NCBI GenBank assembly: GCA_035221665.1
Contig: CM069174.1
Coordinates: 10,726,001 to 10,790,000, forward strand
Direction: 5' to 3'
Source of the DNA: Okamejei kenojei
Taxonomy: Eukaryota
Length of the DNA: 64,000 nt
Below, piece by piece: positions 15,996-47,914 of the stretch (the stretch's first letter is position 1; every line of letters begins with the position of its first letter). The notes beneath the pieces were generated by a model, which worked only from the letters and a program-made list of their open reading frames with translations, was not told the origin of the DNA and ran no database searches. A program made the translations under genes and the position numbers.

Positions 15996-16369
15996 CTGCA
16001 GAACAGCAAGGGGCAGGAATCCAAGCACGATTAAAACAAGTCAGACTTAGAGTCACAGAGTGATACAGTGTGGAAACAGGCCCTTCGGCCCAACTCGCCC
16101 AACCATGTCCCAGCTACACCAGTCCCACTTGCCTGTGCTTGGTCCATATCCCTCCCAACCTGTCCTATCCATGTACCTGTCTGTTTCTTAAACGATGGGG
16201 TAGTCCCAGCCTCAACTACCTCCTCTGGCAGCTTGTTCCATACACCCACCACCCTTTGTGTGAAAATGTTACCCCTTGGATTCCTATTAAGTCCTTTCCC
16301 CTTCACCTTGAACATATGTCCTCTAGTCCTCGATTCCCCTACTCTGGCCAAAATCTTTTTGACCACCTC

Positions 16370-17497: not shown

Positions 17498-17642
17498 CTG
17501 ATCCCATGTATCCAAGAGCATGACATCATCTTCACTTAGGTCTTCCTGAGTGAAATTTGTGATCTCTTCTGCGATGAATCTCCCCGTTTTGTTGGAACAT
17601 TCAAACAGACGGGATTGATAATCCACATTTTCCTCTTGTAGT
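17498..17642 (-). CDS. AVIL: Advillin coding exon 15
   Basis: [22 protein letters not shown]...[11 protein letters not shown]. Confidence 0.96.
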
Positions 17643-18447: not shown

Positions 18448-18593
18448 CTTTTGTCATTTGCATAAGGTGCCTTTCCACCAAGCGCTTCCCAAAATTCCAA
18501 TGGTTCTTGGCCCTCAGCAACAGTGGCCTCGTTTCCATTGGACATAATGGCAGCCAATTCCTTTGCCATTTCACGTTCGTCCCCACTGGAGCC
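18448..18593 (-). CDS. AVIL: Advillin coding exon 14
   Basis: [14 protein letters not shown]...[22 protein letters not shown]. Confidence 0.96.
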
Positions 18594-18775
18594 CTACAAA
18601 TATGAAGAGAAAAATCTGAACCAAACCCTTAAACTTCCAGCAGTATTATTTCCCGATTGCAGCAGCTCTAACTATAGATTGAGGATTGAACCAATAAAGT
18701 TAGCCATGCCAAAAGGGGTTGCTCTTATCCCAAGTTTGGTTGATATTGTGTCACTTGTAGTTTCAATTCTTTTAC

Positions 18776-18955
18776 CTTCCCAAACCACAGGTAGCGAATT
18801 GTTTTGGTCGTTAGAAGAAAAACATCATTTGAGTTCAAGGATGAAGCGTAGGGCAGGACCTCGAATGCTTTGCTGCTAGACTTATCGAAGCTGTGGATCT
18901 GAAAAAGTCTGACGAGCGGCTCTTCTTGTTGGCCGCTCTTCCTCGAAGTGCCCCC
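18776..18955 (-). CDS. AVIL: Advillin coding exon 13
   Basis: [21 protein letters not shown]...[12 protein letters not shown]...YLWFGK. Confidence 0.95.
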
Positions 18956-20191
18956 CTAATAAATGATCAAAAGATAACACTTTGTAAATGAGCACGGTAG
19001 TTATTATTATTATTTTTTTTAAATAGTAGTTCCTCCATTCATAAATTGGTTGACAAATACTTGGTGATACAACAACCCAGTTCAACAGTGAAGATTGAGA
19101 ACAAGTTTGGGATCCATTTGAAAAAAAATGAGATGGAACTCATGCTGTGTAGGCAAAAAATAAGAGTACAATTTAAAAAAAAAAAAATCACAGTGAGACC
19201 AACTCTCAAACAGAATAATGCACCACACAGGGCAAACAGCCTATTGTATCTGTACCAACGTATTGCTCAGGCAAAACAAATGTAATCCTATCTTGCATAC
19301 ACATGCAGGACTACAGGAAGAGTGCAACTATAAATTGTTTGCATTCTACCCCATAAAAGGACACCGTCTCTCTCTACTGTCAACAACATACAAGTTTTAA
19401 ATCAATCGCTTGCATTAGTTTGTGTATATCCTGCCACTTAATTTAGAGCTGTTTGTTCAGTCAGCAGCATATATCTTTTAGTTGGCAGAGGTAAATAAAA
19501 GTATATAATTCACCTTTGACCTTTCACATTTCCCCCCTTTTCGGAAGGTTTTGGCACAAACCAGAATATGGGTCAACATGTCCTCCATGTGCAAGTTGGC
19601 TAATTGATTGTGAAGGGCATTACCAGCCAAGTCTGACACCCATGGCCCCGTCACCCATGACTCTGCACATGGCCTTCTGCCCGATAATGATTAGACTCTT
19701 GGCTGATGTTTTATTTTTCACATAGGAAGTAAATGATGACTCGCCTCTATAGCCCAAGGTCAGTGATTTAGACAAACTTGCATTTATATTCTGCATGACT
19801 TCTCTCAGATGCAGCCTTTACGAACAGGGAATTATTCTGACATGAAGACTATTTTCATTGGCAATATACAAACCAAAAAGGCCTATCAAGTAGCAAGAAG
19901 AATGGCTGTTTTTAGTGGTGTTGGTTGAGAGAAGAACCATGGAAGGGTCTCAGCTCATTGTGCTTTGGGACCTTTAACAACTACACAAAGCACCATAGGA
20001 ATTATCCAAGACCTTGGTTAAATATCTAACAACGTGGCATTGCCTTGGTTCAGGTCACTTGTGGCGACCTAAACAAAGGCAACCGATTTAATGTGACTTG
20101 GGATCAAATCTGGAAAAACATTATATTCAGTTCTGTGCCACTGTTAACCCTGATTTTAATCCCATACGTCCATATTAAACCAGCTACTTAC

Positions 20192-20350
20192 TTCAAAGAT
20201 GATCAGTTTGCCCTGGAAGATGGTCATGAAGTGCCGTGGCTCCTTCCCCATGGTGACCCGAACCTGCACTGGTTTATCACCGAACCTCTGGTCAATCTGG
20301 ACCGCCTGATATGCTGAGGCAGTCAATTCATCTTGTGTGGCATGACGACC
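20192..20350 (-). CDS. AVIL: Advillin coding exon 12
   Basis: [17 protein letters not shown]...[27 protein letters not shown]. Confidence 0.96.
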
Positions 20351-22042
20351 CTAGGAGAGCAGTCACTAACTTGGTTAAAGATACTCATAACTCGAGTTAT
20401 TGCTCACCAGTGCCTGGAAATTGGACCACCCCGTTATGGTAAGCCAAATGGGTGCTGCAGGAAGCAATGGTGCACAACTGAATGGCCCCCAAACAATTGG
20501 AAAACTGGAGAAAACCACCATTTAAAAAAACAATCTCTGGGGGTGGTTTTCACCCCAAATCTTGCAGAACTTTACATGCGCAGTTCCCAACAGCAGCTGA
20601 CTGTGCAGCTCACTGCTACTGTGTCAATGCCACACAGACTGCTCTTAAATGTACACTCTTCACAACAGCAGAAAGCATTACAGTGGAAGAGAGGGAAATT
20701 GGCCTGAGGCTTCAGGGGGAAAACTAAATAATTACTTTTGCAATGCGATGGACTAGTCCACCCAAAGGCCAAGCCATTGCTAGTAAAGGGTTCAAAGCGC
20801 CAGTAATCACAGAATTTTAACTACACATTATAGAACCACTGGTGACCGATTATTGTATGTGCTGCCGGGGGACAAAAGTGGTGCAGACACAAATCTCAGC
20901 AGAGGCTGTGGGCAAAACATCACTGCCCCAGTGGGAACTCTTAATTCGTTTATCTTTGCCAACTTACCACAGGAGATGCTCTTCATTTTACTGATTATAG
21001 CAAAGACGGTTGTCAAAGGATACAGCAGAATGTAGATCAGTTGGAATTTGGGACAGAAATGGTAGACAAATGTGAGGGAGTGCATTAGAGGGTCGAATGC
21101 AAGAAGTACAAAGTAAGTAAAAATGTTGATGTACAGAGTGATCTTGGGGCACAAGACCAGAGCTCCCCAAAATTGGCAGCAGAAGTGGATCAGGTGTAAA
21201 GTAGGTGTATGGAATACTTGCCTTCATTGGTCTTAGCATTTACTACAAAAGTCAAGAAGACTTGTTGCGGTTATATAAAACTGTAGTTAGGCCGTGTTTG
21301 GAGTGTTATGTGCAGTTCTGGTCACCACACTATAGGAATAATGTGGAGGCTTTAGATGCAGTAAAGGTTCACCAAGTTATTGTCAGAATGGGAGTGCATT
21401 ATCTATAAGGTGATGGTGGACAATGTTGGATTCCTTTCCTTAGAGCACATGAGGCAGAGGGGTGACCTGGTAGAATTATGAGAGGCATAGGTTGGGTAGA
21501 TAGTAAAGTCTTACCCCCCCCCCACCCCCCCCCAGATAGAAACATTAAATAGAGGGGACAAATATAAAGGGCAAGATGGGGACATTTAAAAGGAGAAAAG
21601 CGAGCAAGATTTTAAAGAAAAGTATAAGTGGCTAGAACATGATGTTTTAGTAATGGTGAGATAATGATCACCACAAACACGACTAGATTATCTTAAGAAC
21701 CATCTGGTTTACTAATGTCTGCTGACCTTGCTTTGTATGGGTGTCTCTAAATGCCTTGTGAAATGGCCCAGCAAGCACCCAGTTATACCAGTACCATACT
21801 GGTTCAAATCATTATAATTAACAGAAACACATCATAGCTATTATTTCTATTTCCTCAGGAATTGGGCAAATCATGGATGCATCAGGACAGAGTGCAAAAG
21901 CCTGGCATCTTGAAAATGTGTTGGTTGCAAAAATGAAATGAGTACGCAAACTGGACACTAAGCACAACTTAAAAGTCACAACTGGAAGTCTGTTGTCGGT
22001 TGGTTTATGATGTGTTCTTGTGCATGTTTCAAATAACCATAC

Positions 22043-22180
22043 CTGCCAAATGTAGAGGATAAAATGCTCCTTCCTATTCACTAGATAAGTGTACAAGATC
22101 AGATAGCAGTCGCCGCCATAGAAATATCCATATGTGTTTGGGTCCACGGGAACCAGTTCAAGGTTCTCTATTCTCCAAAC
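22043..22180 (-). CDS. AVIL: Advillin coding exon 11
   Basis: [32 protein letters not shown]...LYIWQ. Confidence 0.96.
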
Positions 22181-22858
22181 CTACAATTAAAAGAGCAAGT
22201 CAGAGTTCATTAGCTTCGTGGCCAGAGGAAGCAGAGGGTGTATGTTTAGAAGAATGAGAGGTGACCACATTGAAACTAAATTCTTACAGGGTTTAACAGG
22301 GTGGGATATGGAGGATAGACACAAAGTGCTGGAGTAACTGAGTGGGTCAGGCAGCATCTCTGAAGAAAAAGGATGGGTGACCTTTCGGGTCAAGACCCTT
22401 CTTCAAACATGGATTTATGGAGGAGATATTTCAGCTGGTGGGGTAGTTTAAAAATCAGTGTCACTACCTCAAAATAAAAGGCAGGTTACTTTGGACTGAA
22501 ATAAGGAGACATTTCTTCTCTCGTGTGATGGTGAATCTTTGGAAGGTGTTTCCAAGGAGGACTGTGGCAGCTCGATCAATGATTCTACTTAGAACTCAGA
22601 TCAATAGATTTCAGATGACTGAATGATGGGATATGTGAAAAGGTAGGAATATTGATGCCGATTATCTTGTTGAAAAGTGGAACTGGTCTGAGTGGCCGAG
22701 GGGCATGTACCTACTCTAATATCTTACATCCATTGGTTTTTACATCAGACATCTATCTTTACAGTTTCAATTCATTCATCTGGAACAATGTCTTCATTGG
22801 TTCCACCATCTTTATACTTCACGGCTCTCAATGCTAATCTTTAGTAATAATACTGTAC

Positions 22859-22959
22859 CTCAGTTTTCCCTGTACCATCATCAACCATCCTCTCTTGAGC
22901 AGCCATCACCGGAATGGCATGCATTCGGGTAGCATCAAACTTCTGTTGGCTAATCTTGG
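22859..22959 (-). CDS. AVIL: Advillin coding exon 10
   Basis: [33 protein letters not shown]. Confidence 0.95.
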
Positions 22960-23443
22960 CTGGAAAGGGAACAGATGCAGCAAAAGATTAGCAATGTTAT
23001 GAACTCCTAAAGAGTAACACGGGCCTAGGTCCCGGCCATTCAGCCCATTTTACCATGGCTGATCTTAACTCTGTCCATTCCCCTTAGTTCTATATCTACA
23101 TTGGACTTTTAAGGCTATATATATATATTTTCTGGATTCTGTGCATCAGAACCATAAATGGTACTCCGCATGGTCAAACCAGGCCTCTGTATGGATGTAG
23201 TAAACGTTTTTTCGCCCCATTAGATTCTAGATTTCCAGTTCTTTGTGCACCATTCCATGGGAAGGGCCGGATTGTCAATGCAAAGTACTTCCGAGAACCA
23301 CTCACACAAAGGTGGCAGTCCCATATTTCCTGAGAAGTCCCTGTCATGCTCATTGTGACCCACTCCAAGTCATACCCCTGCTGAAATTTGCAGTTACACT
23401 TAAAGACCAAGAAACTATGATTTGTACATGACAGCTACAGTTA

Positions 23444-23914
<471 letters not shown>

Positions 23915-24931
23915 TCAAACTAATAGGTAAATGGATTAGGGGGAAAACAAAGGAACATTTTCTCCACTCAGTAGGTGGTATTGGTATGGTTTCTTATTTT
24001 CTCATCTCAGTCTGAGGGGGGGGGAGAGAGAATGGAAGCCAAAACTTTCATTACATTAAAAAAAAAATGTCTGGATGTACTGCAGCTCTATGGACTCAGA
24101 GCAGGTAGGTGGATTTAGACTGGGTTGCACTGACTAGCATGGATACGACAGGCCAAATGGCCTCTTTTGTCATTGTCCCCCCCCCCAAATTCTATTCAGT
24201 CTGGTTCTATTCGTAATTTCCGACCAGGGAACGACGAACTTCAAGTAGCTCAGGCGATGGAACCAGAGCAAATTTTCAGCTCTCGCATTCAGCAGGCATT
24301 GCAGAGTGGGCAATGAGTATAGAAGTTGGGACATTATGTCACAGTTGTACAAGGCATTGGTGAAGCCACACTTGGAGTACTGGGTTCAGTTTTAAATCAT
24401 ACTGCTATAGGAAGGGGTGCCATTAAGCTGGAAAGAGTGCAGAGAAGATTCACAAGGATGTTGCCAGGACTCGAGATACAACATTTATAGGGAGAGGTTG
24501 AGAGATAGAGAGAAAATAGTTGAGAATTCCCACTACACAAAACCACATCTGCATATCTTTAAGAAATGAGTGTTGAAATAAATTAAAGTATCTTTCTCCC
24601 TCCCCCCCCCCCCCCCCAATCTAAATTCTGCAAGATACATTTTTATTCCATATCTCTGACTATCTCAAAACTTTGGGTCACGATCTGCAAATTCTGCTGG
24701 GGTAAATTTCTCTTTCCCAAACAGGTGAAACACACGCTGCACAAACGAGGTTTACCTCAGGCTAACACTGGACTGCACATTCACTTGCACAAGCCATACT
24801 GAAAAAAGTGAGAAGTCAGTCACCAAAATATCATCTGGACGTTTGCAAATTCACAATTAAAGTACAGCCACCCACAATGGTCATTGGAAGGATCACCATC
24901 TAAACACTGCAGTCATTTCTATTGTACTTAC

Positions 24932-25030
24932 CAGGGCTCTAGACATTGCAGCCCGTTTTTCCATCTTTGTAGCTCGTTTTCCTTTCCAGACATAAATCTT
25001 GGTTCCACCTTGGTCCAGAATGAAGCAATC
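24932..25030 (-). CDS. AVIL: Advillin coding exon 8
   Basis: [33 protein letters not shown]. Confidence 0.96.
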
Positions 25031-25358
25031 CTGGAAGATATTGAACAGGTTCATATTTTTAAATGCAAGAACCCCGTTGGAAGTAATATATATGACCACT
25101 GTACATAGGATGCAAGTTTCATTGGAAGTCCAACAAGGTCTTGAGAATAAAACTCAATGAAAATGTCCACATATTTCCTCCGTTACTTACTATCCCTGCA
25201 GGTAGCAGTCTGATAACAGTTGCAAGACTGTCAGTGTTAAATCGTGGCTAAAGACCTAGGGCTTGTGACATGTGGTTCAATTAGTTGGTATCAGCAATAA
25301 AGAGGACAGTGGAAAGAGAAGAGCCCTACCATGTACGGCTAATGTGCTGGGTACTCAC

Positions 25359-25437
25359 ATTGTGATCTAGCATGTCCTGGTCGAGAGGCCTTGTGGCAAC
25401 TTCTGTGACCTTCATTTGTCCATCAGCATCTGAAACA
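25359..25437 (-). CDS. AVIL: Advillin coding exon 7
   Basis: VSDADGQMKVTEVATRPLDQDMLDHN. Confidence 0.94.
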
Positions 25438-25640
25438 CTGAGTTATCAAGTTTTGTTTTAAATTGGTGCTTGCAGCTATCATTTAGTTTGAAAGCTATAC
25501 AAAATAATGCAGCAGTGCTCCAATCCAGTTCACCATAGAATAATAGATACATACTTCATAAATCTACTGTACTATATAAAACATGCTCCATGCAATATTC
25601 TATATTTACAATTTTATACAAAAACCACACCCAATCTTAC

Positions 25641-25846
25641 TGGTAGAGGCTAAGGTTGGCCTTCTGCTGCTGATCTGCTTTCTCATCAAGTGTTGATGGG
25701 TTAATTTTATTTGTCCTTTCCCCAAGAAACTTTGCCAAAACCTTCATCAGCTCAGGAGAATTTGGTTCCTGGTCGCCTTCGATTACTCCGATGCCTGCAC
25801 GCCCACCTCGCTCCCGATCTCTAATATCCTTCGCGAGTTGCATGCC
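25641..25846 (-). CDS. AVIL: Advillin coding exon 6
   Basis: [25 protein letters not shown]...NLSLY. Confidence 0.96.
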
Positions 25847-26889
25847 CTGTGTCAAGAGCAAACGGGAGTTCAAAAGAACCATTAACTAGTGTAATTTCTG
25901 TGAGGAAGGGCTGTGTTTATAGTCTCTGGACATCCCAAAGCCTTTGAAATCAACATATTTTTCCAAATATTTGTAGTGTAGGAAGCACCCCAGCTTATCT
26001 GTGCAAAGCAAGTTCCCACACACAGCAATGTGATAATAGTTAGAGCCTCTGTGTATCTTTTATATCCACTTGATGGGGTGAAGGGAGATTTCATTTGGTA
26101 TCTGATCGGAAAGACAGTGAGCACACCTGCAATTCTGCAAGGAGAGTGTCAAATTGTGTTCAAGGTCACTGGAGTGGAGCCCAAACCTCCCACCTTCTGG
26201 CTCAGAGACGAGGGTGACACCCACTGAACTATGGCCGACAAATAAAGATGCCAGAGTTAAGTAGCAGGGGATCTCACTGCGCAAAGAACCAGCACAGTCA
26301 CATTTCATATCATCTGGAAAATTGAACCAGCATTTTGGATCATGAGTCACCGTTACGACTCTAATGGATATTCTGTGCTGGAGTGCATGTGATGAGCGCA
26401 ATTCCCTGTGCAACGTCCTTTTGGAGTATTGTGAGAGCACATGGATGCCATGGTCCTGAGGACTTGCATTGTACAACGCTGTATTACTCCTGCAGTGTTC
26501 ACCTGAGAGGCCCTCAACACTTGTCAAAACCCTTGCATTCTCCCTACATTACATTAAACCCACAACACCCCCAGATGTTCAGGAAGGACTAACTGGGTCC
26601 TCATTCACCACCACCACAAGCCATCGCAATGCAATTTGCTACTGGCAGATCTCCTGACCTCCGGTCACCGCACTACCACCCCTCCTCCCCAGTGCCAGTG
26701 TGATCTCTCCTTCACCCACACAATTCAAACACAACCACAGAGAAGTTAGTTAAGGCAAAAAAAAAAAAAAAAAAAATGTACAACAGTTAGTTTGTATTGA
26801 CCAGGATAGAAGTAATTTCCACACCCCAATGCAACAACACCATTCTAAGATATCCTTTAGGGTGCATCAGTACTTCAAAGCAGTGGTAC

Positions 26890-27000
26890 CTTCAACCGTT
26901 CCATTCTGTTACTCTCTGGCCCATTCCACTGAACAATGACTTTGCCAACATCCAAAAGAAAGACATCACCCAAGTTGAAACTCTCCCAACTCATTTCAAC
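26890..27000 (-). CDS. AVIL: Advillin coding exon 5
   Basis: [37 protein letters not shown]. Confidence 0.96.
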
Positions 27001-27352
27001 CTGTAAGCAAGAGCACACATTAGAGCACTTATCGTTCATGGTAAGCTCCATTATTGGTCATCTGCAATAGGCTGGATAGATCAGTCAGTTGAGATTTGTA
27101 GTCAAGACCCCAGAAGGTGTTTTCATCTTTTGGGGGCATTTATAACAAGCACCACAGAGTGTGTGGTGAAATGGGAGATCCTCCAAATGCATGATACTGG
27201 GAAAGAACACCACTGTCAATGCACAGTGAAGATCTTTCTTGCAATCAACCTTCTCCGGCAAAATACATAGTCCAGAGAGATGCCCATGCCTAAACTATGG
27301 TCTTGATACAGCGAACGTTTACCCCACTTGGCTGCCGGCAGAACTGGAGTTA

Positions 27353-27565
<213 letters not shown>

Positions 27566-28170
27566 TCATACACAGCACAGGAGTTTCCAAAGCTGGTGGG
27601 TAAGCATGATAGCAAGGATGTTCGAGTTTTGCAGAGTAAAAGTAGAGGATCAAAAACCTTTTTTCACCGAGCTGCCAATCTACACGGGATCCACTGAAGC
27701 CATATCCAGTAGGCCATCCATGAGATATTATCAGAACACGTAGAATTTCACTTCACCATTAACCTAGGAACTCACATTTGGCTCAATTTGTGGTGTAGAA
27801 GGATGTGTCAGGAGCAGCCCCATTTTCACCACAGTATCATTGAAACACCTAGGTCAGTTGATAAAAGGTCAGTAACCAAAACACCAGCTAATTTCCTCTC
27901 CAATTAAGGGGCACAGGGGCTTTTGTAATCTTCCTTCCACTTTTCTATAATTTTGAAACAAGATTTTCATTTTTTTGCCAGTGGCTATGAAAAGGAAGTG
28001 AAACTTCTGTACATTGTGTAGCATTTGGTAAAAGCTGCACAATGCAGAACAGAGCAGAATTAGCTCACAACCCAAGCAAAGACAGCAATGTACACAAGTA
28101 AAAATACAGTAGAGCTCAGAGAGGCATAATGTCTCTCAGTCCCCCATTCACAGCACGAGAAAGGACGCAC

Positions 28171-28367
28171 ATGATACCACTTTTGAAGTAACCCTTGAAG
28201 ATCTCCGACTCGTGCCCTTGCACTTCTCGATGCTGCTCTGGACTTCCATCGAGATAGTCATCCAACTGCATGGTGTTGATTGCAGCTGCGCCCTGCTCAT
28301 CCTGCGATGACTCCAACCCAATCCAGTAATGGATGTCACGCTTGAAACCACTGGCAACATTCTGTGT
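28171..28367 (-). CDS. AVIL: Advillin coding exon 3
   Basis: [55 protein letters not shown]. Confidence 0.96.
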
Positions 28368-28424
28368 CTACATGATAGACGAGAAGATTAGATTTCCAAC
28401 TCGAACAACCAGTTAGATTTCCAT

Positions 28425-28800
28425 CATGTACTGACCTCCTCACCATCGAAGGGAACCGCCTCGAAAGAGCAGTCAGCATCAACAAAGACCCATCCACACC
28501 ACCCTCTCATTTCACTGCTGCCATCCAGAAGGTGATATAGAAGTCCGAAAACCATGACATCCAGGTTCAGGAACAGCTTCTTCCCAATGATCATCCAGCT
28601 ATAGAACACTACAAACACTAAAAATTTCAAACTACAAACAGTCTTGGTTGCACTAGGGACTTTGAGCTTTTGTTTTGTGTTATATTGGGTTTTTTTTATT
28701 GAACTCCTTTTTTTTTGTCTATTATGTTATCTGCTGCAAGTACAAATCTCATTGTTCAGTTTTGGTGCATATGACAATGAAACACGACTCTTGACGACTA
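28425..28800 (+). mobile_element. Degraded Rex1/Babar-like LINE 3' end
   Basis: aaagacccatccacacc...ctgctgccatcc...aggttcaggaacagcttcttccc pattern (KDP.HP..LLPS..R.RNSFFP). Confidence 0.55.
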
Positions 28801-29660
28801 AAGTATTTTTTTAGGACCATTATAGATAAAATGATATAAAGCTATGCAAGGAGATACAAGGGCATGTGACTGAAAAGGTTGGTCAAAGAGGCAGGTTTGA
28901 GGAACATCTTTTGGGGAAAAAGAAAGGAGGAAGAGAGGGTGAATGAGAGAATTTTGAAGCTTAGGTCGTTAAAACTTGGAGGCATAGGCCCCAGTGCTGC
29001 AGTGATTGAATTCAGGCATGCCAGAAAATGTGGTTGCAGAGATTTCCAAACTATAGGAGCTTAAGGCTATTTTAGAGATTGAGAGGTGCAAGGCAATGGA
29101 GGGATTTGATAATGAGGGCGGAAATACAACCGTCACATAGGTTACATACAGAGTGCTGTGAAACCAATACAATACTTAGTCAGGGACTGTCTGAATGGGA
29201 CAACACAGACATAGCTTTATTGTGCAGTCATCTTTTTTTAAATTTTAATTTAAGAAACATTTTGTTGGGATCTGGGTATAATATTTATGCAGAGCAGGAA
29301 GGAATTTACTCTGTCTCATCTATGTTATCCATGCTCCGGAACTTTTAACTGAGCCTTGAAGATGGAGCTTTACTCTGCATCCAACCCATGTTTTAAGTTC
29401 CCACCATTTGCCTTTAATGTACAAGTATTCCAAGCTTTAAAGCCGTTTAATTTTTTCTACTGAAATGAAAGGAAATATTTTTATTTCTTAAATACAGAAT
29501 GGCAAATACACGATTTGAACAAAATCCAATGTGCTGTCCCTGCACATTTTTCATTCTCCATCACTAACTTTTATTGCATTAATAGGCATAAAAAGCCAAC
29601 TCTAAAACAGGTCTATTTGGTTAATTCCATTTCTAATGTTGAGAAACCAGATCAACTTAC

Positions 29661-29735
29661 CGCCAGAAGGATGTAACAATCACCATTAAAAAAATTGCCA
29701 TAAACCTTCTGAGGGACAGGCACCAATTCCAGTTT
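29661..29735 (-). CDS. AVIL: Advillin coding exon 2
   Basis: KLELVPVPQKVYGNFFNGDCYILLA. Confidence 0.95.
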
Positions 29736-30686
29736 CTGATAAAATTAAATAGGTCAGTATTAACAGAGAAAAGGTAATAATGAAATACAAGACTATTAAA
29801 AAAAGATGCTCAATGCCAGTATTTTATGAAGCTTGAAAGCAATAAGGGTGCAGTTGGTTTTACATATGTAGATCAACTATTGGTGAAAAAAGCTTTAACT
29901 TTGCATTACGGTCTCCTAATCCCTAAACAAGCCTCCGCACATATTTGTTCTCCATTGCGTGCCAGGTACCAGCATATGCATTTTAAACCACCCTTCTGAA
30001 ATTTGACACCATTGATCTCATGTTCCTTGTTGCATGCACGAAGACCAAGTATCACGGGAATTCAGCAAATCATTTTTCAGCAAAACCCAATTTACAGATT
30101 GATTCTGGCACAAATCCCATTTACATTTGTCTGAAATTAGACAATAGACAATAGATGCACGAGTCGGCCATTCGGCCCTTTGAGCCAACACCGCCGTTCA
30201 ATGTGATCACGGCTGATCGTCCACAATCAGTACCCCGTTCCTGCCTTCTCCCCATATCCCCTGACTCCGCTATTTATAAGAGCCCTATCTAGCTCTCTCT
30301 TGAAAGCATCCAGAGAACCGCCCTCAGAGGCAGAGCATTCCACAGACTCACCATTCTCTGTGAGAAAAAGTGTTTCCTTGTCTCCGTTCTAAATGGCTGA
30401 CTCCTTATTCTTAAACTGTGGCCCCTGGTTCTGGACTCCAACATCGGGAACATGTTTCCTGCCTCTAGCGCGTCCAAGCCCTTAACCATGTTTCAATGAG
30501 ATCCCCTCATCCTTCTAAATTGTTATTACATTTATGCTAGACTTACAAGTGCTAACTGAAGTTGCAGTGCTTGGAGGTTGAGGGGGGGGGGGGGGGGGGG
30601 GGGGGAGGGGAAGACAGAAAGCATAATGGGGAAGTCAACTCCCTTCATTTGTTTACAGACCTCTTGGACTCAATGTGCTAACTCAC

Positions 30687-30752
30687 CTCAATTCTCCAGA
30701 TCAGGATTCCAGGAGTGTCGGTGATAACTTTGAAAACAGTTTCCAATGACAT
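30687..30752 (-). CDS. AVIL: Advillin coding exon 1 (ATG at 30752; acceptor at 30765)
   Basis: MSLETVFKVITDTPGILIWRIE; the 19 exons join in phase to 2454 nt (817 aa plus stop); six gelsolin domains plus headpiece; convergent with TSFM as in human. Confidence 0.93.
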
Positions 30753-33981: not shown

Positions 33982-35972
33982 CCCCACAAGACATAGCGTT
34001 CAGTCCATTGAGGCCACTTCAACATTCAAGCATGACTGATCTATTTTTCCTTCTCAACACCATTCTCCTGCCTTCGCCCTGTAACCTTTGACACCCTTCT
34101 TAATCGAGAACCTATCAATCTCCGCCTTAAAAATACCCAATATCTTGGCCTCCATAGCCATCTGTGGCAATGAATTCCACAGATTCACCACCCTCTGGCT
34201 AAAGAAATTCCTCCTCATTTTGAAGGTCCGTCCTTTTAGTCTGATTTCCTTCATACTTCTAAAATCCAGCAAGGTCAGGCCCAGAGTCATCAAATGCTCC
34301 TCTTACGTTAACTTCCTCTGGACCCTCTCCAACACCGGCACATCCCTCCTCAGAAACGAGGCCATAAATCTGCTCACATATTCCCAAATGTGGCCTCACC
34401 AGCACCTTCTAAACCCTCAGCATTACATCCTTGCTTTCATATTCTAGTCCCCTCATAATGAATGTTAGCATTGCACGCACACACTTCCTCCGTCTGCTGG
34501 GGCAAAATCCTGCGGACGTTTATCAGCACCATGTTCAAAAATAGAACAGTCGTTCATTCATGGTCTGCACTACTTCCAAAGAAAAGTGCCCACCACCACC
34601 CTTGCAAAGGTCAATCCAGCACAAGAAATGTCATCAACATTTACAACTGGGTCGTGAAGTGAAAGTTAAACATGTCATTCTAAATTGCATTTGCAAACAC
34701 TCAATGCAAAGGTGCTCGGCACCCTTTTATAGTATTGCTCATTTATGCAAATTTTTTACCAGCAGCTTGCCATTTACTTTGACAGGCAAATACACCATCA
34801 GTACCATTTTTTTAAACCCATCACCCATTCCAAGCAAACTTGAACCATGAATTAAAACAAATGAAGATAGAGACACACACAAAGCTGGAGTAACTCAGCG
34901 GTGCAGGCAGCATCTCTGGAGAGAAGGAATGGGTGGCATTTCAGGTCAGAACCCAAAACATCACCCATTCCTTCTCTCCAGAGATGCTGCCTGTACCGCT
35001 GAGTTATTCCAGCATTTTGTGTCTATCTTATGTGTCAACCAGCATCTGCAGTTCCTTCCTACACAATTAAAACAAATGATCCAGCCAGGTACCCAGGAGC
35101 TGAAACCCCAGACATACCTGGTCTTTGAAGAATTCTGGAACATCCATCAGAAGTTTTCAGAGTACGGTTGTGTTGTTTTGATTTTCAGTCGTGCTCAATT
35201 CCAAAACAGAGCTCATGAAGAAGGGTTTTGGCCTGAAACGTTGCCCATCTCCTTCGCTCCTTAGATGCTGCTGCACCCGCTGAGTTTCTCCAGCCTTTTG
35301 TGTACCATCACCAACGTTCAATTTGGGTTTCTATAGAACAATGCACCATAGGGTACAGGATAAAAAGCAAGAAACAGAGAGATAAAAAGGACTATTTGCA
35401 CTACTTCTCAATGACAAAAGCCGACACACCAAGCATATTGAGGAAGTGCTGCACTGAGTTAATGGGATGATAAAGCAAAGCTTAGACTGCCCTCTCAGGT
35501 GATCTCCAATAATGCTATGGCATTATTTTTGAAAAATTAAATTATCAGTGGTATCCTGGCCAATATTTATCTCCAAATCAAAAACATATTTGCTTGGTGG
35601 GAGCATGCTATGCTTAAAACTGGCTGCAATTCCCACATTTAGAGAAAATTGGCAAGAGCTGAAAAAGTTTGGGAAGTACAAGGTTGTAAAAGATACTCAT
35701 AAATGCTGGTTCTTTTTGAGCTGTAGAATTCAATACCACAGTTAATCGTTGAAAAAAGTTATCCCTATTACATTGGATAGGTGGATGACAGTGATGGGGA
35801 AAAATAGCAGCAATTATAACTACCTGTTTGGACAAAGGTAAACGCCAAGAGAGTAGTTGCTTTGAATGGAAGATAAACACAAGAAGCTGGAGCAACTCAG
35901 CAGGTCAGGCAGCATCTCTGGATAAAAGGAATAGATACTGTTTCGGGTCGAGACCCTTCTTCAGATTGTCAT

Positions 35973-37585
35973 CACGTGTTCTCTGGCTGCCGAGGGAACA
36001 GAAGAGGAACTGAAAATATATCAAAGCGAGGAGTCAAACTCAGTTTCATTCTTTCCTTGCCCATCTTGCTGGAGTCTAGTTGCACAGGCAACATTTGACT
36101 TCAGTGGTTGACCTACATGGGAACTTGGAATATGCTGGCATGCTATTCAATTGGAATATCATCAGACCCCAGCCAACACAAAACTACCTCAACCACATAT
36201 ACTTTCCAGGTGTGGTTCAAATAGGGTTCAGGCCGATTACCCAAAAGGGCTTTCCATAATCTGGGACTGGCAACACACTACTTGATAGTCCATTTATTTG
36301 AAAAGCTAAGATCCACGGAGGCTTTAGTAATCCTTTCTTTCAGGAGATGAAATATTGCATCAAAAAGCATCCAGTTACTTTGCTACACTGAAGTATTTGT
36401 TGAGAACAAGAACACACACACAGAACATAATTAGTACTGTTCCTCAGTTCCCATCCCAGAGCCCATTTAAATAGTTTCCAAGTCATTTTCTGCAAGATCT
36501 TCCACTATTGGCTGGTTACAGATTTGATGGTACAGTCACAGTGAACCTGGGCAAGCACCATTACACAATATGTCAGGCATTCTTCTTGCTGGACAGAACC
36601 ATGGAAAATCCAAAATGGTAGAATACACAACCATCTTTGGAGATGCAATAAAGACCATCTCCTGACACAAGTCATCGAGAATAGACTAAGTTAAACTAAC
36701 AGCCTATCCTGGATTACTTGAATCAGGCAATAGCCAGACCCCAATTTCAAAATAATCCAGCTCTTCACTGGTTGAAAATTATTATTATTATTTTTTTTTT
36801 TCAAAAGGACTACTGGAGTAAAACAGTCCAGCCATTCCCTCAAAGACAGAAGCAAAATAGTATTTTGAAAATACTATTTTGACAGGAATCAGTAGTTTTA
36901 ACATCTACTAGATGGGGAGGGGGGGGGGAGTGGTCTGTATGGAGATGGATTTGCAAACTGCTACAGGGCTGCATCTTCTACTGGATGAGTACGTAGCATT
37001 TCCCTATTCGTCTCACCTAGTCCACTAGAGCCCCAACAATCAGGGCAGGTTCAAGCCAGGCAGAGCTGGGTGCACACAGCAGACTCACTTACCAAGCTAA
37101 TCTCGCTTGCTCTCACTCCCATCACATTATTGTTTCTGTGATCCTCTCTCACATACCATTCTCGTCATTTTCAAGTTACAAACAGTTCTCAGGAAAGGAA
37201 TCCTTTTGTAATCCAGGGACTGCCTGTGTTGTGAAGAGAGACCTCTCTGGGGAAAAACAGATGAATTCTGCTTCAAAATGTTACAATTCCTTTTAGTGAT
37301 AGTTTAGCTTGCTACTTGGGCAAAGTACCAGTCTTTAAAAGCCGACCAATACCATCAGAGCATGAAGGAATTATGAAAATGGGGAGTAAGAGAAAGGTGT
37401 ACTTGCCAAATGATGTGCCACTTTCTTTTGAGGTGACCGGTCGTCAAAACCTTGCAACAACCGGCTGATATTCCAAGTGTAGCAGCAACAGAAAAGAGCA
37501 CCAAAGGTATTCATGCCATGAGATTTGGTCGCCAACAGGTTGCATTTGAAGTCTGCACATAACCAACAAGGAAGCTTGGAAAATC
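35973..37585 (-). pseudogene. CTDSP2: Eroded CTDSP2-like (small CTD phosphatase) gene hosting miR-26
   Basis: Exon 37407-37585 reads KSHGMNTFGALFCCC (cf. KPRGRNIFKALFCCF); about 36380-36546 frameshifted QPIVED/LQKMTWKLFKW...SVAK (cf. RP.VDEFL..MGELFEC..SLAK); about 35973-36075 DSSKMGKE...QPENT (cf. DLSRLGRD...HPENA); no DLDET exon found; syntenic position next to AVIL. Confidence 0.6.
36653..36735 (-). ncRNA. MIR26: miR-26a-type precursor hairpin; mature 5p at 36701-36722
   Basis: Exact TTCAAGTAATCCAGGATAGGCT with complementary 3p arm TCTATTCTCGATGACTTGTGTC and paired basal stem. Confidence 0.96.
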
Positions 37586-38691
37586 CTGTATTTAAAAAAA
37601 GTCAAGTACGTTCCATATTTTTGGAGAGTAACACATACAGATTATGGACCATCAACACATACAAATAAATCTGAAATGGCTATAAAGTATCAATTCAATT
37701 AACTTTATTTTTACGTTTGGAAATTTAGTTTCAAAGTACACCTTGAGATATCCGGAAACTACAAAAAAAGATTCTTTGTTTTTGGGACAGAGGACAACAG
37801 CTATCTCCCAAGAGTCCCACCTGTCAAATTAATAACCAGTTAAAAGAGTCTCCTGAAAACCCACATGTAACTCGCATGTCTAACCATCCCACCCCTTGAC
37901 CGGCTCGTCTTTTATCCCAGAGAAGATTTTTTTTTTTTTAATCCACACTTTGTATTTACACCATCCTTAATACTGGCTCATCCCTTTGTAACAGTCCTTC
38001 TTCCTGCTGCCCCCCACTTACATTGGCAAGTGCTCCAGTTCTACTATATCAATCAGTTGCTGTTACAGCTAGAGTCCACCAGAGAGTGCATTAGATAGAG
38101 GACTGAAACCCTAGTTCACACACAGAACTGAAGCCAGAAAGAATTGCAGCTGCTTACAATCTCAGGGTCTGATTACATCAAATCCAGCTTTTCTGCTTCA
38201 AGAATCCCATTTCACCACTTAAAATGTAATCAAAGATTATAATGGAAATAAACTGTGTGATCAAAACCAGTTATTAATCCAATGTGAAGTTGCACTTCAT
38301 AAGCAGTGCTCCAGATTGCAACCAAGAAGAAAATTCATGTTTATTTTCTAAGGGCGATTCCTTTGGCATCTGACTCAAGTACCATTTTGCTTTTTTCAAA
38401 AAAAATCCCAAGTAGATTTATAAAAGACTGCAGAGCACATTTCTCAGGTTTGCGAATAGAAATAACCAATTTCTTTTGGTAAGAATAGACAAACTTTTTT
38501 TTTTTTTTTTAAATTACATCCAGTAGCGATCTTGGGAACACTTTAGGGTGAAGCTCCAAAAGAAAATGATTGTAGGCACAGGATTGTAAATTTCAGAAGT
38601 ATAAACACATCTGCAACTTGGGTTAAGAAAACTGTGCACTCTTAAAATACAGTGGCCCAATCAAACAAATTGTTCAAGACAGCCGACCTAC

Positions 38692-40329: not shown

Positions 40330-41160
40330 GGGTCTCTTCTATACCCGTGACTCTGCTCTCTCTCCCCATCCCCCAACTCGCAACAAGGGCAGAGTCCCCC
40401 TTATCCTCACCTTCCACCCTACCAGCCGTCATTTACAACAAATAATCCTCCCTCATTTTTGCCACCTCCAACGTGACCCCACGACTTGCCAAATCTTCCC
40501 ATCTCCTCCCATCTGCTTTCCGCAGAGACCGCTCCCTCCGTAACTCCCTGGTCAATTCGTCCCTTCCCACCCGTACTACCCCCTCTCCTGGCACTTTCCC
40601 TTGCAACCGCACTTTACCCCCCCCTCGACTCCATTCAAGGACCCAAGCAGTCTTTCCAGGTGCGGCAGAGGTTCACCTGCACCTCCTCCAAACTCATCTA
40701 TTGCATCCGCTGCTCTAGATGTCAGCTGCTCTACATCGGTGAGACCAAGCGTAGGCTTGGCGATTGTTTCGCCGAACACCTCCGCTCAGTTCGCAATAAC
40801 CAACCCAATCACCTGATGGCTCAGCACTTCAACTCCCCCTCCCATTCCGAATCTGACCTTTTTGTCCTGGGCCTCCAAGGCCAGAGTGAGAACCAGCGTA
40901 AATTGGAGCAGCACCTCATATTTTGCTTGGGCAGTTTGCACCCCAGTGGTATAAGCATTGACTTCTCTAATTTCAGGTAGTCCTTACTATCTCCTCCCTT
41001 TCTCAGCTCTCCATCAGCCCACTGGCTCCACCTCTTGCTTTCTTCTTCCCCCACCCTCACATCAGTCTGAGGAAGGGTTTCAGCCCGAAACGTTGCCCAT
41101 TTCCTTCGCTCCATAGATGCTGCCTCACCCACTGAGTTTCTCCAGAATTTATGTCTACCA
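40330..41160 (+). mobile_element. Penelope-like retroelement 3' portion with GIY-YIG endonuclease
   Basis: RVPLILTFHP...; FTCTSSKLIYCIRCSRCQLLYIGETKRRLGDCFAEH...HFNSPSH; followed by the same terminal repeat as the dispersed short copies. Confidence 0.9.
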
Positions 41161-42135: not shown

Positions 42136-42432
42136 TGCCCCTGTCCCACTTAGGAAACCTGAACGGAAACCTCTGGAGACTTTGCGCCCCACCCAAGGTT
42201 TCCGTGTGGTTCCCGGAGGTTTTTGTCAGTCTCCCTAATGGTCGAAAGTGGTTTCCGTTTTAAAAATCGGTAATTTTTTAGTCGAAGCCGGTTGCGATGC
42301 TAGTTGAAGGTGGTTGCCGGATGACAAAAACCTCCGGGAACCGCACGGAAACCTTGGGTGGGGCGCAAAGTCTCCAGTGGTTTCCGTTCAGGTTTCCTAC
42401 GTGGGACAGGGGGCGCAAGTGGGACAGGGGCA
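42136..42432. mobile_element. MITE with long terminal inverted repeats (PIF/Harbinger-like)
   Basis: tgcccctgtcccac...gtgggacaggggca, arms about 90 bp, flanked by TGA/TTA. Confidence 0.8.
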
Positions 42433-42439
42433 TTAGTTT

Positions 42440-42630
42440 CGCTCCAAAGAGCGTCGTTCCGCTCACCGAGCGACGGCGCGGCCACCACGAGCAGGCGCGA
42501 GGAAGCCTCCTCCGCCCCGGAGCGCGCGCGGGAGAGCGAGCCCAGCCCTCCACTGCCCCACGAGGCCACGTTGTTCGACCGCTTGGCTGCGGAGCGGCAA
42601 AGGCGCGCAGCATCGCGAGTCACCTCAGAT
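42440..42630 (-). promoter_or_regulatory. CpG island; candidate first exon with GTGAGC donor near 42466
   Basis: Very high GC/CpG content, GC box ccgccc, minus-strand donor. Confidence 0.55.
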
Positions 42631-45600
42631 AGTGTTTTACTTACACTGCTAAGAAAGTTTATGATGCAAACCATTTCCTAAAGATGACCTTTGATGGGGG
42701 GGGGGGGGGGGCAACTTTAAGGTGCCTCACGCCTGCTCTCGTTTTAGAAGGGGAGAGGAAATCGTCTTCAGCGCGACGCTCCATTTGAAGTAAACTTGCT
42801 TTTGGCATTAAAAAGGCAAAACTCGAAAGGAGCATCTGCCACTTCTCATGTGCGTCAGCTATGCAGATGATCCGTCGACCCTTGACAGTCCCGCAGTTGG
42901 GGCTTTAATGGCAACTAGCATTTGTACACCGTCTTTAACGTAGTAAAATGTCATCAGATCAATTTGACACGGACCAAATAGAGGGAGGCATTGGGTCAAG
43001 CATCATCATCCAAGGTAGGTTTAAGGAATGTCTTGCAACCATGCAACACGGAAATAGGCCCTTCGGCCCCACTGTTCCATGCCGACCAAGATGCCCAATC
43101 TAAGCTAGCCTGCTTTTAGCCCATATCCAATTGTATTTTAAATGTTGTCATAATACCAGCCTCAACTACGTGCGCTAGCAGCTCGTTCCATATACCCACC
43201 ACCCTCAGTGGAAAAAGTTGCCCCTCAGCTTCCTATTAAATCTCTCTCCTCACCTTAAACACATGTTATCTCGTCCTTGATTCCCCTACTCTGGATAAAA
43301 GACTGCATTCACCCATCTATTTTCACCATAAGATCACCCCTAAACCTCCTGCACTCCAAGGTATAAAGTTCTAGCGTGCCTGGTCTCTCCCTATAGTTCA
43401 GGACCTCAAATCCAGGCAACATCCTCGTAAATCTTCTCTGCACCCTTTCCAGCGTGAAGGCATATTTCCCATAGTAGGGTGACCAAAACTAAGAACAATA
43501 CTCCAAGTGCAGTCTTATAAAAAGTGGTGGTGGGACGATGGAAAATGGATGGAGTTGCTATTAATATGACCATTTAATAAAAATCCAGTAAAATAAAGAA
43601 AGCTGCAAATTAAAATTAGGTTTTGTGTGAACCAGACACCCGATGAATGCCCCACAATGCCACCAATTGCCTGCACTTCAGTCATTTTCTATTTCATTGT
43701 GCATCCCAAGCTGGATCATAGCCCACACTAATTGCAGGGGAAAGATCCAGTTACAGAACTGCACGCAAGATTAACGCACATAAGCTCAAGCTGGTGGTCT
43801 GGCCTCCAAATACCAAAATAAATTATAGTTAGAAACCATTGGAGTTTAAAATCACTCAAACCCATCACAAATCACTTATTTGTAATGCTCCATATACCTA
43901 CTATGCCACTTTTAGATCTTGAGATATAAAAAGGAGGTAGGAGACAAAAGTTTCTACCTTTAGGAAATGGATTTCCTTCAAGGCTGCTGAGTGCACATGT
44001 CTGCAAAAGCAAAAGCAAAAATGATGTTTATCAAAAGACCAAATCAGTGGCACAAGATAGCCATGAGAAGCACCACAACCCCCGATGGCTTGGTGGAAAG
44101 AAACTGTACACATTTTATGCTACTACACAAATACATTACTACAGGCACACCTCCCAGAACATTACCCAGAGTGAGGCACAGGATAGAATACATGATCCGA
44201 ACAAAAGGGACATTATCAACAATTGTGATAGTAAGACTTAAAGAAATATGCAGTACTGTATGTACATGGATTGATAGAGGGAAAGATTGGCAATACTGGA
44301 TTGAGGTGTTCAATCTCACATGGAATGATTCTTTATCTCATTCAGAACAAGCTTCACAATCTAATTTTCTTTTAAAAACATTTCATTTCAAAAGATTCTG
44401 TCATATTCCTTGATGGAATTGGAATTCAGTTCCATGGAAAACCACAGCCCCCCCATTCCTCACTAAATTAACCACACTTCTGCAAGGAAAACCATGATTA
44501 TTAATGATCAGAAAGTGCATTGCAGATAGGGAATGACTGTACTCCCTCAACATGCTGCACTGTCCAGCACACCTCACAAGTTTGTTGTATTTGAGACCAA
44601 TTGCAGTATCCCCAATACCAAAACTCCGACCAACAATCTCAATTCAAGTCAGAACTACATAGGTTAAAGCTCCATTTGGGAAGAATTTTAAGTATTCAAA
44701 AGTGGCAGGCTTCATGTTCTAGGTGTCATATTTTTGGCAATCCAGCAATCCATTTTGGCCGATCCACCATCTCACAGAACAGATCCCACAGCATTGTTTT
44801 GCAAAAGTAGTGTCCTTTAATTAATTACCATTACTAAAACAGAATAACTAATCACTAATCTCATTGTTATTCTTGGGAGTTTGCCATGCACAATTGTCCA
44901 ATTTATTACATCAGGATCTGTAATTAAGAAAAACAAAAGTACCTGGGAAAAAAAGACTATTGAAATGCAAATCTATTCCTTTTAAACCTGTCAAAATTAG
45001 CCAAGAAACCAGAAACAAACTTGTGATTTCCTTTATCTCACTTTGCCTAACACTGAACATTTGATGCTAATTTTTCATAGGTATGGAGCATATCTAACAT
45101 AGCAACAACTATTCACAGGTGCTTAAGTCTTTGTCTGGCTAAGAAGCCATTGGCTGCATGCATAAACTGACCCAGGGGTTAAGAAAATACCCAGGCCCGC
45201 ATGATTAGATCCCTCCACACATGTAATATGATGAAGGGAAAGAGTAACATTATTTGTCAGAAACTAAAATGTCCTTAGCCTTCCATGGAGTATTTGGGAA
45301 ACCCTGCTGGTCCCAACCATAGAGGGGTGATTCCAATTGTGGTAAACACTTTTTGTTTTATTTGTATCAAAAGGGTACTTTGTTACCAGATACATGAGTG
45401 ATAAACATTAAAATGCATTTTTCCTCTCTCTTCCCCATATCTTATTCCACTCCCCTTACCTATTTACAACTGAAACACTTGAATATCCCTCAGTGAGCGA
45501 CAGGGTTCAATTTAGCTAATAATTCTGCATCGCCCCTTAAAGGAGCCTCAAGCTTGCATTTCTTATAGCACCAGAAAGAGACCAGTTTATGTTAAAAACA

Positions 45601-46184
45601 AGACTTTGCGCACTGCCAAAAAAAGCTTCAATTTAAAAAAAATTGGGAAATTGAGGATTCTTAAATATATTGGGTCAAAGAAAATGAAGTTTGGAATTAC
45701 AAGGGCAGAAGAAATAGCAAGATGGTAATCGAACACCCAGGTAAACGTTAAAAAAGTGAAGGGGACATTCACGTTAAACAATGACAGTTATTCAGTATCC
45801 TGCAATTCAGGAGCAATGTTCATGTGGAAATGATTTTCATTTTAATAAGATGTGGAAAATTATTCACCAGTTAGAGAGAAAAGCTTGCAAAGCAGAGGGT
45901 AGGTTTAATAGAATTTGGAAACGTTCACCATAAACAAAGAAAACAAAAATAACATGTTAAATAGAGCCCTAAATCTCTGGCCTTAATGCTGATGTTCTAC
46001 AACTATAAACATACCCTATCCCTGATTCTTAAATTAAAAAATATATATTTTGCTGCAAATCGCTACACTCTATTACACTCAAATGATTAAAACAAACACG
46101 TGGATACACTAACAAAAAAAAGTGGATGTACTGCACTTTTTTGAACACAAAGGGAGGAGACGACATACAAAGTTCCTTCCTCAC

Positions 46185-46790
46185 CTGCATTCCATCGCAT
46201 AGGTGAGAGATGCGCCTCGTTACGACTTGCTAGTCTTAAACTCTCTTTTCCGTCTAGTCGCCTAGTTTCCCCACCGGCGCAGTCCGATCCCAAATACCTC
46301 CATCTACAACGAAATTACAGTTCTACCTCCTCCATCCAGTACCCTCCCACCCCAACAACAGGGACAGAGAAAGGAAACGAAAACAAACCGAATAAATGAG
46401 TCCGTAACAGTTTCAAGGCGCCCGGGTTTCCAGTAAACAACCTCCCACACGAACAGGGTCCCAGCTCTGCTCCAGACATACCAACCGCAAAGCTTGTCTC
46501 CCTCAGAGTACAGGCATATACAAGTCTGCTTCCTTGTTGGGTTGCACTATGCCATACCTGAAAGAATGCTTTTTTTAAATTTATTAACAGTTTTAAAAAG
46601 AGACAGATCAGCGCTTGGGATGGCTTGAAACTGCAGTGAACCTTTTGATTGGATAATTGGGAAAGCTGGTATCTTAAAGGGAAAGATAGGCGACTTTGCC
46701 ACATTTCAACATAGGATTCCAACACATGATTCTCGAGGATTGTTTACGTGCCGCGTGCGACTCGTTGCGAGAAAGACGCGTAGCTACTAT
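46185..46790 (-). promoter_or_regulatory. Second CpG-enriched candidate promoter/first exon
   Basis: CAG|GTGAGG donor at 46184; CpG clusters at 46195-46290 and 46730-46785. Confidence 0.45.
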
Positions 46791-47914
46791 AAAAATAAAT
46801 TACTGGGGGAACTCAGCGGGTCCAGCAGCATGCGTGAAGGCAAATAGATCGCCGACATTTCGGGAAGATACCCTGGATCAGGATCGATAGTCATAGTGTA
46901 GAGGGAATAGCCAGTCCATTGGTGAGAGGGAAGGGTGAGACAGAGATAGGTTATAGGTGCGAGCAATGAGGGGATGGGATGATGGTGAGATGGAGAAGGG
47001 GAGGGGGGAGGGGTGGGGGGGGGTGTCGAGACAAGAGAATGGTAGGTAATGGGTAGAACCAGATAAGGAAAACAAAGGGGGGGGGAGAGATAGAAGAGAT
47101 TATGGAGATGGCAGAAATGCATTCGTACAAGTTAGTAGAAGTTACTACAATCCTGTCATAGTACTTTGCAAGGTGAAAGGACAATTATTTGGTTGACCAA
47201 TGTTTGTATGGCTGTTGTGAAATCAACTCTTGATTAGGACCATTAACTCTTGGTAACTGTTAAATTATAGAAATTAACCCATGTCAAAGGCTCCAAACTT
47301 GTGTCCCACTACACAGGAATGTGCTTTTTCCTCTTACCACCCCAAAATCTTCTATAAATAAAAGATCGAATAAAAATATTGGGCATCATGCAATTCAATT
47401 TTGACTTTGCCCAGAGTAGATCATGCTGTCGATCATTTCCAGGTGAAATTGCGCTGGGCACTTGCATCGTCTATTCATGTTAATCTGCCTGGCAATTCCT
47501 TGCTTCAGGTGTGTGCCAAATGATGTCATTATTCATATAATGTCAGATTCTACCTGTGCCAAGATAGCCTGGAGTAGAAATCTCTACACCACAACTGTCA
47601 TGGAACAGTCTAAGTGGAATTTGGAATGCATTACCATGTAGAATTTATTTTCTATTGAATGTGGCAGTCTGCTGACATCAGGAGACCTGACTTGGCACCT
47701 TTAGAAATCACTGCAAGTTGCTCAAACATCTTCTATATCCACGGAATATGTTGCGACTGAAAGTAAGTGTTTTTTCCAGCATTTAGGTGCTGAGATACGT
47801 ATTCAAGGATGCTTCAGCAGTGACATGCTGTCAGCACTCCATCACTGGAGAGGTCATTATGGCCATGGCTGCTACTAGGGTGAGTTGGGCACCTCGGAGC
47901 ATAAGGCAAAGACA

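Follow-up and report, generated by a model that had tools for sequence, protein, structure and literature searches.

A fossil CTDSP exon beside an intact miR-26 hairpin in Okamejei kenojei: an old phosphatase pseudogene as the probable host of a microRNA

Genes and Features at the Locus

The window analysed here is a stretch of 64,000 nucleotides (64 kb) from Okamejei kenojei (assembly GCA_035221665.1, contig CM069174.1, positions 10,726,001 to 10,790,000), and all coordinates below are positions within it. Two of its genes are apparently intact: TSFM (mitochondrial EF-Ts; 5792-9621, plus strand), recognized by Pfam and by its match to 1xb2_B (E 3.8e-50), and a villin-family gene with a headpiece (12928-30752, minus strand), which consists of eight gelsolin-repeat ORFs plus VHP and has its ATG at 30752. 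Upstream of the latter lie a fossil CTDSP exon 2 and a miR-26 hairpin. The only assembly gap in the window (3624-3757, 134 N) is far from this fossil locus, and no N occurs in the 35.9-47 kb interval.

Each of the known CTDSP paralogs is located upstream of a villin-family gene, with VIL1 and VILL flanking the two other CTDSP paralogs, and only the AVIL/CTDSP2 pair is known to adjoin TSFM; it is therefore TSFM that decides the identity of the locus. The villin-family neighbour is presumably AVIL, according to this synteny. The observed order fits CTDSP2, since the fossil lies in tandem upstream of the villin-family gene, which is tail-to-tail with TSFM. The name CTDSP2 is thus probably right for the fossil; it depends on synteny because the proteins compared included no CTDSP2 N-terminus.

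On the other side of the locus, the Pfam analysis of the 139 ORFs in the 46.9-64 kb region yielded two reverse-transcriptase fragments (51.3-51.7 kb) and two weak chance matches. Besides those fragments no protein-coding gene was recognizable among these ORFs, including ATP23, the next gene in human.

The miR-26 Hairpin

The pre-miR-26 hairpin (36655-36733, minus strand), with a miR-26a-type 5p arm in the miR-26a-2 position, is the sole Rfam match in the window. It matches the mir-26 family RF00244 with 72.8 bits, above the cut-off of 57 (E 3.2e-16), and the covariance-model match is full length (model positions 1-81 of 81). The predicted fold has a free energy of -40.6 kcal/mol (z -5.4), and none of 200 shuffled sequences was as stable. 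The canonical position of the CNNC motif for the Microprocessor is +16-18; in the window hairpin it is found at +19, borderline late, while the basal UG (-14), the apical UGU and the GHG (+3..+5) are in place, so that three of the four motifs occupy their canonical positions. The mature miR-26-5p (36701-36722, minus strand, 22 nt) is identical at 22 of 22 positions to the miR-26 probe printed in PMC5825903.

The sequence-only reading had described an intact and perfect miR-26. The intact hairpin is borne out by the Rfam score, the fold and the exact mature 5p; the word perfect applies to the guide strand, because the 3p arm departs from the Rfam consensus at three positions and has lost one base pair. 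Taken together, these features suggest a hairpin that is still under selection and may be expressed.

Matches to the miR-26 7-mer seed occur on the minus strand at 11484, 37608 and 38381. The first of them is placed about 1.4 kb past the headpiece exon of the villin-family gene and might fall in its 3' UTR, and the other two are inside the host intron.

Reference Proteins and Search Design

The reference set was built from an SCP gene on a contig filed under bacteria, for which 120 matches were listed. The 80 named vertebrate proteins were kept, after dropping 13 unnamed, 25 invertebrate or protist and 2 odd entries, and a profile of 73 proteins was obtained by removing 7 mis-predicted or odd rows. 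All 80 are CTDSP1, CTDSPL or cyclostome proteins by name and motif; among the matches listed, these vertebrate proteins included no CTDSP2 and no chondrichthyan sequence. The tests were consequently made against paralogs, and any likeness to CTDSP2 is understated. Unnormalised frameshift-aware scans were biased towards CpG, their top matches being in CpG islands, and composition-normalised models were used instead.

Four contigs in bacterial MAGs (L006, L008, L009 and L011) contain SCP phosphatase genes of eukaryotic type, some of them apparently with introns, and are probably mis-binned eukaryotic contigs. The best solved relatives of such eukaryote-like SCP genes on bacterial-filed contigs are CTDSPL and CTDSP2. 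Eight others (L003, L005, L007, L010, L014, L015, L017 and L018) correspond to bacterial NIF-like HAD proteins of about 160-210 aa with a DLDETLVHS motif.

The Fossil of Exon 2

The fossil CTDSP exon 2 (37402-37585, minus strand) is located 670-850 nt upstream of the hairpin, on the same strand. Its segment 37583-37407 reached a mean Smith-Waterman (SW) score of 39.8 against the N-termini of the 73 vertebrate CTDSP1/CTDSPL proteins, compared with 20.7±3.1 for 2166 window segments, and was outscored by one of these 2166, a poly-Pro run. The version of this exon in P0001, a translated contig ORF described below, beats 300 of 300 shuffles against the same N-termini, with none scoring as high. In a frameshift-aware scan of the window the exon-2 core ranks 2-4 of about 1050 peaks, and a glocal alignment covers 37556-37405. 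The proposal of an N-terminal CTDSP exon upstream of the hairpin thus stands. The surviving patch, FxxLFCC (37505-37485, minus strand), contains the N-terminal Cys pair of CTDSP/SCP proteins.

Two acceptors precede this patch: an outer one at 37585, used by P0001, and an inner AG at 37552 (phase 1), which is probably the ancestral one. Counted from the inner AG, the leucine of LFCC is codon 20, compared with codon 21 in the paralog consensus. The stretch from this acceptor to the G-K end measures 151 nt, and the same stretch in human CTDSP2 measures 149 nt, which would imply one net frameshift before the 3' end of exon 2.

The fossil region (35973-37600) has 0% cover by window-shared repeats, compared with 9-30% in its flanks, and borders a SINE-like copy at 35865-35972.

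Loss of the Catalytic Exons

The catalytic signature of the phosphatase could not be found by any approach. DLDET is absent as an exact peptide from the six frames of the whole window; two peptides with one mismatch occur outside the locus, at 7266 and 30503. As DNA with up to two mismatches, it gave 9 matches in the window (14.4 expected by chance) and none in 31-51 kb. The DxDx(T/V) motif of the NIF domain (PF03031) was not found at the locus. Neither tblastn with the 80 vertebrate CTDSPs, that is, with paralogs CTDSP1/CTDSPL as queries, nor hmmsearch --max detected an intact CTDSP exon in the 64-kb window or a significant match in the locus. Every alignment of the phosphatase frame at the locus contains stops and frameshifts, with no continuous spliced frame. 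These searches agree with the original observation that no DLDET catalytic exon is present.

Exons 3-5, including the catalytic DxDxT exon, would be expected at 36740-37400 (minus strand), where nothing is statistically detectable. In each of six settings the exon 4-5 model does no better than chance, being matched by 82-166 of 200 shuffles. Two catalytic-motif candidates picked by eye (37026-37009 and ~37044-36950) were not significant and were rejected.

Downstream of exon 5, the two post-miRNA exons with frameshifts noticed in the first reading have a plausible order and strand, but they do not rise robustly above chance. The candidate exon-6 remnant (36437-36546, minus strand, frameshifted) is not significant alone (735 of 2370 null segments score as high), and the candidate exon-7 remnant (36200-36385, minus strand, best patch 36250-36200) is marginal (79 of 2904). 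Frameshift-aware chains of the downstream exons were equalled by 21-59 of 300 and 8-110 of 200 shuffles, depending on the parameters, although the alignments repeatedly choose 36501-36457 and 36250-36200, in the correct order. By eye, the latter patch reads LWKAL..N.P..Y..H against LRKTL..DNSP.SY..H in chain 2q5e. With paralog queries, then, of the exons flanking the hairpin, exon 5 is undetected and exon 6 lacks significance. Pfam and NCBIfam assigned no family to the three read-through frames of 35900-37700 (minus strand), Pfam found no NIF in 33 short segments (three chance matches, E 0.18-0.73), and the exon-7/8 frame gave no PDB match. These post-miRNA remnants are marginal: plausible, but unproven.

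The absence of catalytic exons would have another meaning if an intact CTDSP2, as a duplicate or retrocopy, existed elsewhere and only the parental copy had decayed, in which case the protein would not be lost. The scope of the analysis was the 64-kb window, and a ctdsp2 knockout in zebrafish is reported to cause craniofacial cartilage defects (PMC11818092), so that a true loss may be costly. On the other hand, the close paralogs CTDSP1 and CTDSPL, whose catalytic halves are nearly identical, could cover the function, and no positive sign of a second copy was seen. A relocated gene is accordingly considered unlikely.

Upstream Exons and the Transcription Unit

P0001 is a 119-aa ORF on a 1113-nt contig, found by phmmer with the exon-2 ORF. 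A search with alignment A1 recovered it as the only one of eight candidates, and a word-based search with the exon-2 ORF yielded 0 of 8 candidates. A further match, P0002 (E 5e-4), was rejected as a repetitive chance match.

P0001 maps to the minus strand of the window in three ordered blocks, 46547-46485, 46305-46183 and 37592-37413, with identities of 81, 95 and 90%. Both introns, of 182 nt and 8.6 kb, show GT-AG joins, the second of which reaches the fossil exon at 37585, in phase 1. Upstream exon A (46486-46557, minus strand) is defined by this mapping and has an uncertain 5' end. Upstream exon B (46185-46303, minus strand, 119 nt) corresponds to P0001 residues 21-61 (95%), with an AG before it, a GT after it and a phase-1 join. 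In the window this 119-aa frame is interrupted, with GTG at the P0001 start and TGA at codon 15; over 116 residues, 11 differ, each by a single-base change.

The simplest reading of the junctions is that P0001 derives from a spliced RNA of a close relative, which would place in that relative a spliced transcript over the fossil, as expected of a lncRNA derived from a lost coding gene. Because P0001 links upstream exons to the fossil exon, this locus is likely to be transcribed and spliced; it reaches 46.55 kb or beyond and is probably not an assembly error. The extent first proposed, 35973-37585, does enclose the fossil and the hairpin, but the unit goes on for about 9 kb beyond it. P0001 ends before the hairpin, and continuation of the RNA through miR-26 is therefore an inference.

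A CpG-rich stretch at 46100-47000 (CpG o/e 0.86-1.09 in four 300-nt intervals) may represent the promoter region of the host RNA. At the opposite end, an AATAAA (36293-36298, minus strand) is a candidate 3' end, with others at 33800 and 33780. Candidate splice sites on either side of the hairpin are a donor at 37092 or 37016 and an acceptor at about 36546. Within the long intron of the host, 42138-42412 is self-matching, probably an inverted-repeat element, and adjoins a CpG-rich stretch to 42900 with a GC content of up to 0.66 and ORFs without a Pfam family; the whole 42138-42900 region may represent a transposon or else a further promoter. A 167-codon frame at 40477-40977 (plus strand), to which Pfam gave no family, presumably resembles a fragment of a GIY-YIG retroelement endonuclease.

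Tested together, exons A and B did not resemble exon 1 of the CTDSP paralogs (290 of 300 shuffles score as high), and the idea that exon B is a fossil exon 1 was rejected on that ground. This dissimilarity would fit a different origin, in which CTDSP2 disappeared by deletion or erasure, a new transcription unit captured miR-26 and the exon matches arose largely by chance. All the remnants but one are indeed marginal or absent, and it has been described that lncRNAs at fossil loci often take new promoters (PMC5577775). But no segment of the window outside low-complexity sequence matches better than exon 2, whose strand, side, phase and acceptor register are all as they should be, and about 660 nt are left where exons 3-5 belong, all of which makes such a capture very improbable.

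P0001 also bears on whether the decay is an artefact of assembly or belongs to a special chromosome, a degenerate Y-linked copy coexisting with an intact X copy. Part of human chromosome 12 is reported to be the homologue of the elasmobranch X (PMC10620051), and the elasmobranch Y is reported to be degenerate (PMC12318234). Against mis-assembly, the locus has no gaps, the decay consists of scattered substitutions, both neighbours are intact and an independent dataset, P0001, holds the same decayed exon at 90% identity; mis-assembly is thus an unlikely cause of the exon loss that the earlier reading had considered. Shark Y-specific regions, as far as described in PMC12318234, are gene-poor and repeat-rich, unlike the fossil with its 0% cover by window-shared repeats. 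The probability assigned to either form of this explanation is minimal.

Uneven Decay and a Possible Peptide

Exon 2 and the catalytic exons have not decayed to the same degree. The erasure of the catalytic exons (exons 4-8) implies about 0.45-0.8 substitutions per site, so the loss is probably old and is predicted to be widely shared, and exon 2 implies about 0.15-0.3. In living paralogs the opposite holds, the catalytic exons being far better conserved than exon 2. Neutral decay was simulated in 24 settings of 60 runs, including 240 zero-distance control runs, and the observed pattern (exon 2 kept, catalytic exons erased) appeared in 1 of 1440 runs, a figure from a crude model with uniform decay and no large deletions, judged on a patch picked for its likeness. 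RNA-level constraint, a two-step loss or luck may explain the asymmetry.

The host could still encode a short Cys-rich exon-2 peptide with a palmitoylated membrane-anchor motif, or a regulatory uORF. Besides the better preservation of exon 2 and the rarity of this outcome under neutrality, it is the Cys pair that survives, a palmitoylation site in SCP1 that is also conserved in SCP2/3 (PMC5404917). An in-frame ATG at 37514, six codons before the LFCC leucine, opens a frame of 47 codons if unspliced, which is common to the window and P0001, while the 119-aa frame is broken in the window. Several points weaken this proposal. Nine ATGs lie upstream in exons A-C, 15% of minus-strand codons sit in equally long stop-free runs, and P0001 was discoverable only with an open frame. 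Moreover, exon 2 of the window and of P0001 differ at 5 of 57 residues and exon B at 2 of 39, so that exon 2 is not the less divergent of the two, the Atlas and Pfam recognize nothing, and the choice of patch and the crudeness of the simulation apply here too. A surviving peptide is therefore given little weight.

An equally doubtful extension is that CTDSP2 was split by function, with the enzyme lost early in cartilaginous fishes and the locus keeping miR-26 together with a membrane-anchor peptide. If so, CTDSP1/CTDSPL might face competition from the anchor peptide for palmitoylation or for sites at the membrane, and, should the locus also be X-linked, the dose of miR-26 would differ between the sexes.

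An Old Pseudogene as Probable miR-26 Host

The best reading is an old pseudogene turned into a miR-26 host RNA. It is probable, though some way from certain, that this is the ancestral CTDSP2/miR-26a-2 locus, in which the phosphatase frame died long ago and the transcription unit was kept for miR-26. That a protein-coding host became a probably non-coding one, as first proposed, is favoured by the exon-2 fossil, the absence of a phosphatase exon from the window, the intact neighbours and the spliced product of the relative. Against it are the marginal post-miRNA remnants, the undetectable exons 3-5, an exon B unlike CTDSP exon 1, the poor fit of uniform neutral decay, a transcript side that depends on P0001, an ORF of a 1113-nt contig, and a scope of 64 kb.

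According to this old-pseudogene model, Pol II would start in the CpG-rich region at about 46.2-47 kb, and two short exons would be spliced to fossil exon 2, as seen in P0001 of the close relative. The host RNA would run on through the hairpin, which Drosha and Dicer could crop by means of the retained motifs to release miR-26 with a canonical 5p. Selection would act on the hairpin, the promoter and some splice signals, presumably retaining them for miR-26; with selection confined to these elements, the catalytic exons would erode to near noise. The locus would then yield miR-26 without a co-produced phosphatase mRNA.

Comparison with Known Systems

In duplicated miRNA clusters, one paralog locus may have a coding host and another a non-coding one, such as SMC4 and DLEU2, or MCM7 and MIR17HG. 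The window locus shares this arrangement with them; it differs in that its lost host is still recognizable and the loss is lineage-restricted.

Like the CTDSP2/miR-26a-2, CTDSP1/miR-26b and CTDSPL/miR-26a-1 pairs, it has a hairpin downstream of the FxxLFCC exon on the same strand and a villin-family neighbour, but it lacks the phosphatase frame and DxDxT. It is also compact, exons 2 through 7 covering about 1.4 kb; in human CTDSP2, the distance between the upstream donor region and the hairpin is by itself described as about 1.6 kb (PMC6125624).

An intronic miRNA has also outlived its protein-coding host in medaka, where miR-499 is reported to be expressed without MYH14/MYH7b (PMC3716903). 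There the host is described as wholly absent, its loss having followed a teleost duplication, while the window retains a fossil exon within a spliced RNA; and, unlike that case, the CTDSP host has been reported to be targeted by its own miRNA. Mammalian lncRNAs are said to descend often from coding genes that were lost and that they hardly resemble any more (PMC5577775); the window locus is alike in having a spliced RNA in syntenic position whose resemblance to the lost gene is short and weak. Those examples are mammalian, with enhancers or uORFs credited for their retention, and the main text of that paper contains no match for microRNA, miRNA or host. By analogy, the window locus would work like medaka miR-499 and the lost-gene lncRNAs combined. 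The type of event is thus already known, which makes the surprise moderate.

Feedback and Possible Sex Linkage

The CTDSP hosts have been reported as targets of their own miR-26 (PMC6125624, PMC4159003), and the resulting negative feedback has been described (PMC6125624, PMC5825903). Without a phosphatase mRNA from this locus, self-repression in cis has no target, and repression of CTDSP1/CTDSPL in trans may remain. As a hypothesis, then, the feedback loop would be uncoupled, in line with the first proposal.

In human, Gli1, Stat6 and Stat2 are near CTDSP2. The elasmobranch X, which corresponds to part of human chromosome 12 (PMC10620051), is reported to carry these three genes and to lack chromosome-wide dosage compensation (PMC12318234), and X linkage of the fossil locus is plausible by this analogy. 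The terms ctdsp, tsfm and avil are absent from the one or two supplement text files consulted for each of three shark sex-chromosome papers, including PMC11406177, ctdsp is not mentioned in the accessible part of the bioRxiv preprint 10.1101/2025.02.26.637739, and PMC8321539 mentions neither mir26 nor ctdsp.

Biological Meaning

No report of CTDSP2 loss in cartilaginous fishes was found in the literature searches made, although genome annotations or miRNA databases may record it. The CTDSP/miR-26 pair is a standard case of an intronic miRNA that represses its own host in neurogenesis (PMC6125624). A lineage that discarded the enzyme while keeping the miRNA and its transcription unit would be a natural experiment showing which of the two partners is preserved by selection, and would offer a datable case of a coding gene becoming a miRNA host RNA.
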